Source: Escherichia coli (GTDB lineage: Bacteria; Pseudomonadota; Gammaproteobacteria; Enterobacterales; Enterobacteriaceae). Taken from it: a stretch of DNA of 64,000 bases. Location of the stretch: the NCBI RefSeq assembly GCF_030013595.1, contig NZ_CP122768.1. One strand, 5' to 3'. The position numbers and the translations under genes are program-made. Shown in pieces: positions 27,733-48,437 of this stretch (position 1 is the first letter of the stretch; each line of letters starts with the position of its first letter). The notes under the pieces were generated by a model. That model was given only the letters and a program-made list of their open reading frames with translations. It did no database searches and was not told where the DNA came from.

Positions 27733-28152
27733 ATGGTCGTTAAAAATGCTCTTGCCTGTGGGATTATGCTTGCTCTTGTCGGTTGTGCTACAAAACCTGT
27801 CTCAAATGAACAAGCCACACCTGTTCCTGAAAAACAAATAATCAGTACCGCGTTACTCGAAAAACGAGACGGTACGGGAGAGGTGATCATCAAGCGTGAC
27901 TCGGGGTTCTTTGGAAGCGCGTGCTTTTCCCGTGTTTATGTTGATGGTAAAGAGGTGGCAGATTTAGGTACAGCTCAGAAAGTCGTTGTATACCCAACGA
28001 TTGGAGATCATGTCTTCAGCGCGTGGCCTAAAGGGGTATGTGGCGGTGGCATGAGCGAACAGGCGGGCAAGGTGACAACAGAACGTACTTTGATGTATCG
28101 CATAGGGTATGGATCAAACGGTGAATATGGCATTCACCCAACTGCGTTTTAA
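27733..28152 (+). CDS. Lipoprotein (139 aa), prophage cargo gene adjacent to the attachment site
   Basis: Signal peptide with lipobox LVGC; own upstream non-coding region (27488..27732); located between the tail genes and att. Confidence 0.55.
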   Translation: MVVKNALACGIMLALVGCATKPVSNEQATPVPEKQIISTALLEKRDGTGEVIIKRDSGFFGSACFSRVYVDGKEVADLGTAQKVVVYPTIGDHVFSAWPKGVCGGGMSEQAGKVTTERTLMYRIGYGSNGEYGIHPTAF

Positions 28153-28373
28153 TTTGTGTTGGGGTATGTGAGTTTTTCTCATACCCCTTTACCTCACTTT
28201 GCTCTTGACTGTTTGGTCACATCAAGGCGCAAAACATCACCATTTTTTGCCAAAAACCTTCAGAAGATGATGAGTAAGACGTGTCATAACTATATGATTA
28301 TTTGATATTCACACACACCATTATGTCCGGATAATTTACCATAATCATTTGAAATTATTGCACAAAACGAACA

Positions 28374-28429
28374 ATTTAAAATCCCTCGGCGTTCGCGCTG
28401 TGCGGGTTCAAGTCCCGCTCCGGGTACCA
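28374..28429 (+). tRNA. leuZ: Partial tRNA-Leu (leuZ-type, anticodon TAA), 3' 56 nt only (anticodon loop to CCA); prophage attachment-site core
   Basis: Sequence aTTTAAAATCCCTCGGCGTTCGCGCTGTGCGGGTTCAAGTCCCGCTCCGGGTACCA matches the 3' part of E. coli tRNA-Leu(UAA); the 5' half (acceptor and D arms) is replaced by phage sequence. Confidence 0.8.
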
Positions 28430-28472
28430 TGGGAAAGATAAGAATAAAATCAAAGCAATAAGCAGTGTCGTG

Positions 28473-28497
28473 AAACCACCTTCGGGTGGTTTTTTTG
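28473..28497 (+). terminator. Rho-independent terminator downstream of the tRNA locus
   Basis: aaaccacc ttcg ggtggttt followed by T7. Confidence 0.6.
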
Positions 28498-28624
28498 TGC
28501 CTGCAACTTGTCGTTACACCCTCCTTAATTTTTAATCACCGGCAAAGCCACTCAAAAAGTATCTCTGTTACGGACCGACATGTAAGATAGGTGCTGGCGA
28601 GTTGAGATCCACAAGGAAAAGCGT

Positions 28625-29290
28625 ATGAAAACGGGACCGTTAAACGAAAGTGAGTTGGAATGGCTGGACGATATTCTGACCAAATACAACACTGACCACG
28701 CCATTCTTGATGTGGCGGAGCTGGACGGTTTATTGACGGCGGTGTTGAGTTCTCCGCAAGAGATTGAACCGGCACAGTGGCTGGTTGCCGTGTGGGGTGG
28801 GGCTGACTATGTGCCACGCTGGGCGTCAGAGAAAGAGATGACGCGCTTTATGAACCTGGCTTTTCAGCATATGGCCGATACCGCAGAGCGTCTGAACGAA
28901 TTCCCGGAGCAGTTTGAGCCGTTATTCGGCTTGCGAGAAGTCGATGGCAGCGAGCTGACGATTGTTGAGGAGTGGTGCTTTGGCTATATGCGGGGCGTGG
29001 CACTTTCTGACTGGTCAACGTTACCCGATTCGTTAAAACCAGCGCTGGAGGCGATTGCGCTGCACGGTACTGAGGAAAACTTCGAGCGGGTAGAGAAGAT
29101 GTCGCCAGAAGCGTTTGAAGAGAGCGTAGATGCCATTCGACTGGCGGCGCTTGATCTACATGCGTACTGGATGGCGCATCCGCAGGAAAAAGCTGTTCAG
29201 CAACCGATCAAAGCAGAAGAGAAACCGGGGCGTAATGATCCTTGCCCGTGCGGTAGTGGTAAGAAATTTAAGCAGTGCTGCCTGCATTAA
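28625..29290 (+). CDS. yecA: SEC-C metal-binding domain protein YecA
   Basis: C-terminal [17 protein letters not shown] motif; K-12 synteny next to tyrP. Confidence 0.9.
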
Positions 29291-46775: not shown

Positions 46776-48437
46776 ATGATTAACCGTATCCGCGTAGTCA
46801 CGCTGTTGGTAATGGTGCTGGGGGTATTCGCACTGTTACAGCTTATTTCCGGCAGTCTGTTTTTTTCTTCCCTTCACCATAGCCAGAAGAGCTTTGTGGT
46901 TTCCAATCAATTACGGGAACAGCAGGGCGAGCTGACGTCAACCTGGGATTTAATGCTGCAAACGCGCATTAACCTGAGTCGTTCAGCGGTGCGGATGATG
47001 ATGGACTCCTCCAATCAACAAAGTAACGCCAAAGTTGAATTGCTCGATAGCGCCAGGAAAACATTGGCCCAGGCCGCGACTCATTATAAAAAATTCAAAA
47101 GCATGGCACCGTTACCTGAAATGGTCGCTACCAGTCGTAATATTGATGAAAAATATAAAAACTATCACACAGCGTTAACTGAACTGATTGATTATCTTGA
47201 TTATGGCAATACTGGAGCTTATTTCGCTCAGCCAACCCAGGGAATGCAAAATGCAATGGGCGAAGCGTTTGCTCAGTACGCCCTCAGCAGTGAAAAACTG
47301 TATCGCGATATCGTCACTGACAACGCAGATGATTACCGATTTGCCCAGTGGCAACTGGCGGTTATTGCGCTGGTGGTGGTATTGATTATGCTGGTGGCGT
47401 GGTACGGCATTCGCCGTATGTTGCTTACACCGCTGGCAAAAATTATTGCTCACATTCGCGAAATCGCCGGTGGTAACCTGGCGAATACCCTGACCATTGA
47501 CGGGCGCAGTGAAATGGGCGACCTGGCGCAGAGCGTTTCACATATGCAACGCTCTTTGACTGACACCGTCACTCATGTGCGTGAAGGTTCCGATGCCATC
47601 TATGCCGGTACCCGTGAAATTGCGGCGGGCAACACCGATCTTTCCTCCCGTACTGAACAGCAGGCATCCGCGCTGGAAGAAACTGCCGCCAGCATGGAGC
47701 AGCTCACTGCGACAGTGAAGCAAAACGCCGATAACGCCCGCCAGGCCTCGCAACTGGCGCAAAGTGCCTCCGATACCGCCCAGCATGGCGGCAAAGTAGT
47801 GGATGGCGTAGTGAAAACGATGCATGAGATCGCCGATAGTTCGAAGAAAATTGCCGACATTATCAGCGTTATCGACGGTATTGCCTTCCAGACTAATATC
47901 CTCGCGTTGAATGCCGCTGTTGAAGCCGCGCGTGCGGGTGAACAGGGCCGTGGTTTTGCCGTGGTGGCGGGCGAAGTGCGTAATCTTGCCAGTCGCAGCG
48001 CCCAGGCGGCAAAAGAGATCAAAGCCCTCATTGAAGACTCCGTCTCGCGCGTTGATACCGGTTCGGTGCTGGTCGAAAGCGCCGGGGAAACAATGAACAA
48101 TATCGTCAATGCTGTCACTCGCGTGACTGACATTATGGGCGAGATTGCATCGGCATCGGATGAACAGAGCCGTGGCATCGATCAAGTCGCATTGGCGGTT
48201 TCGGAAATGGATCGCGTCACGCAACAGAACGCATCGCTGGTGCAGGAATCAGCTGCCGCCGCAGCTGCGCTGGAAGAACAGGCTAGTCGTTTAACGCAAG
48301 CGGTTTCCGCGTTTCGTCTGGCAGCCAGCCCACTCACCAATAAACCGCAAACACCATCCCGTCCTGCCAGTGAGCAACCACCGGCACAGCCACGACTGCG
48401 AATTGCTGAACAAGATCCAAACTGGGAAACATTTTGA
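46776..48437 (+). CDS. tar: Methyl-accepting chemotaxis protein II (aspartate receptor) Tar
   Basis: Sequence recognised; start MINRIRV. Confidence 0.95.

Follow-up and report, generated by a model that had tools for sequence, protein, structure and literature searches.

In a window of 64,000 nucleotides of Escherichia coli DNA, phage genes, half of a tRNA gene, a small-RNA sequence and the host gene yecA follow one another on the same strand. The tRNA half (28374-28429, +) reads ATTTAAAATCCCTCGGCGTTCGCGCTGTGCGGGTTCAAGTCCCGCTCCGGGTACCA and corresponds to nucleotides 32-87 of leuZ, which is annotated as tRNA-Leu(UAA) in K-12 MG1655, with 56 of 56 bases identical in the three-way alignment described below. 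Identity begins at the final base of the 5′ strand of the anticodon stem (28374), so that the seven-nucleotide anticodon loop TTTAAAA (28375-28381, +; anticodon TAA at 28377-28379) forms the left edge of the block, and extends to the CCA end at 28429. A preliminary description of this DNA had named it as the last 56 nt of tRNA-Leu(UAA), from the anticodon loop to CCA, and both the coordinates and the wording proved exact. In the window from 28373 leftward the alignment reveals no similarity to the 5′ half of leuZ; unrelated sequence with phage genes lies there, in agreement with the earlier claim that phage DNA had replaced that half.

ARAGORN calls no tRNA gene in the whole 64-kb window, and hence no complete tRNA-Leu at this position, and the Rfam tRNA model gives only a partial match (28401-28418) of 13.3 bits, below the threshold of 29; the sequence is therefore a fragment and not a gene. 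A 50-nt portion of it has a single match in the window, compared with 0 in 100 shuffles, and the fragment search finds no second copy of the core inside the window, as expected of a prophage that exceeds the 28.4 kb visible here. PGAP annotates a 105-nt “tRNA-OTHER” in the near-identical genome NZ_CM149870.1 at the equivalent of 28325-28429, and the phage-derived GUCCGGA at 28325-28331 can pair with the 3′ strand of the acceptor, as might be expected of a genuine tRNA gene, or a pseudo-tRNA gene, of unusual form. We consider this extremely improbable in view of the ARAGORN and Rfam results, the absence of the D arm and of the 5′ strand of the anticodon stem, and the documented role of attR fragments as a cause of false tRNA calls (PMC9897764). 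The 105-nt fold is not better than that of shuffled sequences (z = -0.32), and the feature was rejected as a structured RNA, the annotation being a false call caused by the attR fragment.

The 67 nt that directly follow leuZ in K-12 are annotated as the ncRNA 3′ETS-leuZ (b4759). This spacer is said to have been presented by Lalaouna in 2015 as a tRNA-spacer-derived sponge for RyhB and RybB. It is described as a sponge for these two small RNAs; RNase E frees the spacer from the glyW-cysT-leuZ precursor, and the spacer drives RyhB decay by pairing and ends in a Rho-independent terminator (PMC6191717). The window holds a complete copy at 28430-28496 (+), base-for-base the same as the K-12 sequence (67 of 67), but this copy has neither the glyW-cysT-leuZ promoter nor a complete pre-tRNA in front of it, the 5′ tRNA half being absent. 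The copy includes the intrinsic terminator of the operon (28472-28496, +), with a minimum-free-energy hairpin at 28472-28493 and a T run ending at 28496; a simple terminator scan did not flag it, and folding and the published description confirm it.

Prophage body and host flank

Positions 1-28373 (+), ~28.4 kb, form the right-hand part of a temperate myovirus prophage that continues past the left end of the window, as judged by Pfam and by the PGAP annotation of NZ_CM149870.1. Its genes encode lysis functions, terminase, a lambda-type head and a P2-type contractile tail, and the Pfam matches to the left of the fragment include a lambda-family portal, capsid E, tail sheath, gpD and a tail-fibre N-terminal domain. 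The lineage is poorly characterised, the tail sheaths of the closest isolated phages being only ~46% identical. The terminase gene terL (8087-10048) carries an in-frame amber codon at 9035-9037 (TGG to TAG, W317*), a position that reads TGG in both the NZ_CM149870.1 prophage and the homologue in strain SE11; in NZ_CM149870.1, terL is instead interrupted by ISVsa5 at the equivalent of window 8721-8731. Two independent terL lesions in sister prophages suggest that these prophages are defective, as the copy in the window probably is.

The last prophage gene (27733-28152, +) encodes a 139-aa lipoprotein with the lipobox LVGC, which is without a Pfam match and corresponds to phrog_890 “lipoprotein” (E = 2.9e-52); its position at the end of the prophage resembles that of a moron. 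Between it and the tRNA half lies the phage P arm of the junction (28153-28373, +), which is ~95% conserved beside the leuZ fragment in other lysogens and contains, after the last phage gene, an inverted-repeat hairpin (28161-28187). Within the P arm, CAGAAGATGATG (28260-28271, +) is a candidate arm-type site of the integrase, chosen by a shared motif: GAAGATGAT of the P arm is common to a tandem TCCGAAGATG pair in the P′ arm at the opposite end of the prophage (L002 21450-21471). Of the three occurrences of the repeated motif, (T/C)(C/A)GAAGATG, one is in the P arm and the other two form the tandem pair of the P′ arm; all are candidate arm-type binding sites.

To the right, yecA (28625-29290, +; Pfam UPF0149 and SEC-C) is the first chromosomal gene after the junction and is followed by tyrP, as in the K-12 order leuZ-yecA-tyrP. 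Farther along the window, Rfam reports MicL (59974-60281, +; 365 bits) and C0465 (46651-46728, -; 100 bits), both chromosomal, consistent with the E. coli yecA-to-cutC region and unrelated to the junction.

The integrase end and the att repeat

An intact tRNA gene and an integrase had been expected at the other prophage end, outside the window, and this is where they are seen in NZ_CM149870.1 (E. coli HCP5S3_I2), a genome that is 99.9% identical to window 1-29000 and whose sole structural difference over that stretch is the ISVsa5 element in the terminase gene. There, pgsA, glyW, cysT and an intact leuZ are followed by the integrase gene, a DUF4224 excisionase gene and early genes, and these in turn by lysis, head, tail and lipoprotein genes, the leuZ fragment, yecA and tyrP. 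The prophage is ~48.5 kb long, with the start of the window falling ~18.7 kb inside it from the leuZ/integrase end, and exactly two copies of the repeat, in direct orientation, bracket this one prophage. In strain A42 the same prophage is free of IS elements and spans ~45.5 kb from one of these ends to the other, again with an intact leuZ, a tyrosine integrase, an excisionase and a 126-bp direct repeat. K-12, with the order pgsA, glyW, cysT, leuZ, 3′ETS-leuZ, yecA and tyrP, represents the empty site, and an uninterrupted site in which leuZ leads directly to yecA is also found in SE11. The attL and integrase belonging to the window itself would be of the same kind, judging by genomes that are 99.9% identical to it over 29 kb. 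Taken together, the direct repeat, the integrase, the phage genes and the empty site bear out the proposal of site-specific integration at a tRNA gene.

The integrase of NZ_CM149870.1 (338 aa; L002 21496-22512, -) lies on the opposite strand, 130 bp from leuZ. It matches PF00589 (34.2 bits, cut-off 27.1), PF22022 above its cut-off, and phrog_1, and the excisionase beside it matches phrog_1266. In an alignment to lambda Int (E ~1e-8), R195, K218, H291, H314 and Y323 are conserved, and the Arg-II position is taken by Lys294 (HDLK) where lambda Int has Arg311 (H-E-L-R). Four homologues of 49-99% identity, among them mEp390 Int and the integrase of the SE11 prophage, which occupies a different site, all have this Lys. 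Hundreds of clean insertions suggest that the enzyme is active.

These insertions were counted over 5,426 complete E. coli genomes, of which 432 contain the junction between the P arm and the leuZ fragment and 428 the junction between leuZ and int; the integration module is thus present at leuZ in ~430 genomes, or about 8%. Several elements unrelated to one another use leuZ as a hot spot, the repeat reaches four copies in some genomes, and tandem or successive insertions do occur, so that the fragment could be imagined as the relic of an older, unrelated insertion and not as the end of the adjoining phage DNA. Such an origin is very improbable: the same P arm adjoins the fragment in all 432 of the genomes just mentioned and the matching integrase adjoins an intact leuZ in the 428, just two copies surround one prophage in NZ_CM149870.1, A42 carries the same element uninterrupted, and only one repeat copy lies in the window. 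A mis-joining of contigs at the repeat, which would turn the truncated tRNA into an assembly artefact, has a vanishingly small probability, given that the identical junction recurs in hundreds of independent complete genomes and that a matching attL end is found as well.

A three-way alignment of attR (the window), attL (NZ_CM149870.1) and attB (K-12) defines the extent of the duplication. Identity between attL and attR starts at 28374, passes the CCA end and runs to 28499, so that the full direct repeat (attR copy 28374-28499, +) measures 126 bp, with 125 of 126 positions matching the NZ_CM149870.1 attL and all 126 matching the K-12 attB. It consists of the 56-nt tRNA half, the whole 67-nt 3′ETS-leuZ with its terminator, and 3 bp more. 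The preliminary description was therefore right that an att core had been duplicated, and its length of 56 bp is to be replaced by 126 bp.

The sole difference between attL and attR is at 28440 (+), where the window and the K-12 attB have A and the NZ_CM149870.1 attL has G. All sampled genomes with a single copy of leuZ show one or more base differences from the NZ_CM149870.1 attL in the shared stretch, which is what this A/G difference would predict. The attR copy runs on into the host flank, which stays identical to K-12 for ~40 bp more before the first host polymorphism. The A at 28440, shared with K-12 attB, and the continuity with the host flank show that the attR copy in the window is the host's original sequence, and that the attL copy of NZ_CM149870.1 is phage-derived from 28440 onward; the fragment was thus aptly called displaced.

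The single polymorphism at 28440, a marker informative for the NZ_CM149870.1 lineage only, as the attL of strain A42 has A there, would place strand exchange within 28374-28439, an interval and not one base. The right prophage boundary had been described as precisely defined; phage-specific DNA does stop at 28373, but the junction is better given as that interval. Within it, the anticodon loop (28375-28381) is the probable region of strand exchange, since identity begins at the anticodon loop and a crossover in this loop is one of three recognised tRNA att sub-sites (PMC4383910).

We are thus highly confident that a ~45-kb temperate myovirus prophage was inserted into leuZ by a tyrosine integrase of the lambda Int type and that 28374-28499 is its right junction, attR. 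The attP of this phage would carry 126 bp of host-like sequence, comprising the leuZ 3′ half from the anticodon loop, the complete 3′ETS-leuZ and the operon terminator. Campbell-type recombination with the chromosome by the lambda-Int-like recombinase, most likely in the anticodon loop, would then leave two unequal products. At attL, outside the window and beside int and xis, the phage copy would complete leuZ, the 3′ETS and the terminator, so that the glyW-cysT-leuZ operon would still be functional and its transcription would stop before the convergent int gene. At attR, the original host 3′ half, 3′ETS and terminator would be stranded behind the phage tail and lipoprotein genes. The repeat ends 3 bp after the T run, and selection to restore both the terminator and the sRNA would be the most economical reason, because the tRNA operon is strongly transcribed toward int and a tRNA half alone would lose terminator and sRNA; a simple historical capture of host DNA is the alternative.

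The stranded 3′ETS-leuZ copy and its distribution

The two parts of the repeat are also duplicated together across E. coli as a whole. The 56-bp tRNA half occurs at 7,098 places in 5,424 genomes, corresponding to 1,674 extra copies, and a 70-bp 3′ETS block at 7,096 places in the same number of genomes, corresponding to 1,672; as the two figures show, an extra leuZ half is essentially always accompanied by an extra 3′ETS copy. Judging roughly by the 1,672 copies and by the rows sampled, perhaps one complete E. coli genome in four has one or more extra 3′ETS copies.

Whether such copies matter depends on expression and on sequence. The stranded attR copy could act as an expressed second sponge gene, or the phage allele at attL could alter sponge function, and in either case lysogeny would change the buffering of RyhB and RybB. 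It would be consistent with such a role that a complete 67-nt sRNA with its terminator is preserved at attR, that every leuZ-targeting element examined keeps the 3′ETS, and that RyhB is reported to become less stable and less abundant when the 3′ETS accumulates in a mutant of pcnB, the gene for PAP I (PMC6191717). The P arm even contains a sigma-70-like site, TTCACA-16-GATAAT (10 of 12 positions; 28308-28335, +), that points into the tRNA half and the 3′ETS; however, one such site against 2.0 expected from shuffles is not above chance, and the hairpin at 28161-28187, past the last phage gene, may stop read-through from upstream. The natural sRNA, moreover, depends for its release on a cut by RNase E in a pre-tRNA, but the spacer at attR follows no more than half a tRNA, and the attR copy of A42 has a substitution in the predicted pairing block, as expected of an unselected copy. 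On balance we regard an effect of lysogeny on sponge function as unlikely.

Predicted pairing between RyhB and the 3′ETS is far stronger than for shuffled sequences (RNAduplex), and that between RybB and the 3′ETS does not reach significance against shuffles by this crude RNAduplex measure. The A/G difference at 28440 would shift the RNAduplex energy by 0.1 kcal/mol for RyhB and by 0.9 kcal/mol for RybB. In A42, the 3′ETS at attR (L010 ~47860-47870) reads AAGTAGTG, compared with AAGCAGTG in the A42 attL (L010 ~2350-2430) and in K-12. This substitution alters the block predicted to pair with RyhB and RybB, at a cost of ~2 kcal/mol by a crude duplex estimate; either drift in a copy free of selection or a host allele could account for it.

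Several practical consequences follow from the arrangement. The junction provides a clean right boundary for annotating this prophage lineage and explains the spurious RefSeq “tRNA-OTHER”. In lysogens the operon-transcribed 3′ETS copy is the phage-derived one, with ~1,670 extra copies of the sRNA sequence over the 5,424 genomes, and in work on RyhB or RybB in natural isolates, probes for the 3′ETS or deletions of it may reach two to four loci. A broader generalisation, to which we give only an outside chance, would be that all leuZ-targeting elements carry 3′ETS-leuZ in attP, and that lysogens transcribe the phage allele along with the tRNA operon and keep one to three stranded copies. Were any of these expressed, or were the phage alleles unequal in activity, insertion of a prophage at leuZ would tune the sRNA buffering of iron stress and envelope stress.

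Comparison with known systems

The use of the 3′ part of tRNA genes as an integration site by phages and islands is long established (Reiter 1989; Williams 2002). In kind, the present finding is already known: the tRNA-att mechanism is a textbook one, the site has been listed before, and public genomes already contain homologous prophages. The one point that was not found in the searchable literature is an att block that includes the whole of 3′ETS-leuZ; no paper linking 3′ETS-leuZ to prophage att duplication was found, the two terms co-occurring in four full texts, with only one or two mentions of each in any of them, but in no title or abstract. Nor are the predicted P arm and P′ arm of this lineage joined, as they would be in attP, in any record of the phage collection. 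Four vB_EcoM-...R records (ON470624.1, positions 1-666; ON470596; ON470604; ON470627), labelled “complete genome” and 19.9-27 kb long, match the P arm and the core and then run into host yecA, including the attR junction; they were rejected as attP or packaged genomes, the host gene marking them as prophage excerpts with host flank. CP025923 (phage 520873) was likewise rejected as attP, since the record continues into the host flank.

As an insertion site, leuZ is listed for prophages and integrative elements in genome studies of STEC. Elements of STEC O121:H19, O145:H28 and O157:H7 share the target, between cysT-leuZ and yecA, but differ from the prophage described here, the O157 element being a degraded P2-like prophage. 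At attL this O157:H7 remnant keeps the 3′ETS up to the T run, where identity ends, with the allele C at +9. A different kind of change was observed in strain IH5 (NZ_CP168269.1; L009 4177-4300), where the leuZ 3′ETS stops 21 nt past CCA and gives way to sequence similar to a tuf 3′ end and then to chiA-bfd-bfr, apparently through a chromosomal rearrangement that broke within the spacer.

Phage mEp390 (JQ182729) offers a parallel at the level of the integration module. Its integrase is 64% identical in protein sequence, and the 121-bp putative attP annotated beside it (L005 1526-1646) combines the leuZ 3′ half, starting at the anticodon loop, with a 3′ETS-like spacer and a terminator; mEp390 differs, however, in being a lambdoid siphovirus with unrelated structural genes. 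Its leuZ copy has a compensatory change from C-G to T-A in the T stem, and its 3′ETS copy has diverged at many positions and by small indels, with the terminator stem kept and the loop changed from TTCG to GAAA, so that both leuZ and the sponge would be expressed as variants in mEp390 lysogens. Related integrases are also found in ZF40 and Fostie. The reverse combination is seen in SE11 (NC_011415.1 2261815-2308960), where a prophage that shares the head, tail and lysis genes (~92% identical at the DNA level) lies beside yodB and not leuZ, and has an integrase only 49% identical to that of the leuZ prophage. The presence of the same structural module at another site therefore indicates that integration modules have been swapped within this phage group.

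With regard to the enzyme, the core-binding and catalytic domains align to those of lambda integrase (PDB 1Z1G, 1P7D; E ~1e-8), with the differences that Lys replaces the catalytic Arg311 and that the target is a tRNA gene, whereas lambda attB is intergenic. With regard to the site, the arrangement belongs with the class of integration at tRNA 3′ ends, for which the principle of a regenerated target and a displaced 3′ fragment has been described (Islander; PMC4383910): a tyrosine integrase acts at a block of identity that starts at the anticodon loop, the target is regenerated at the integrase end, and the displaced fragment is left at the other. The principle is the same in leuZ, but here the block goes 70 bp past the tRNA and includes a co-transcribed sRNA together with its terminator.
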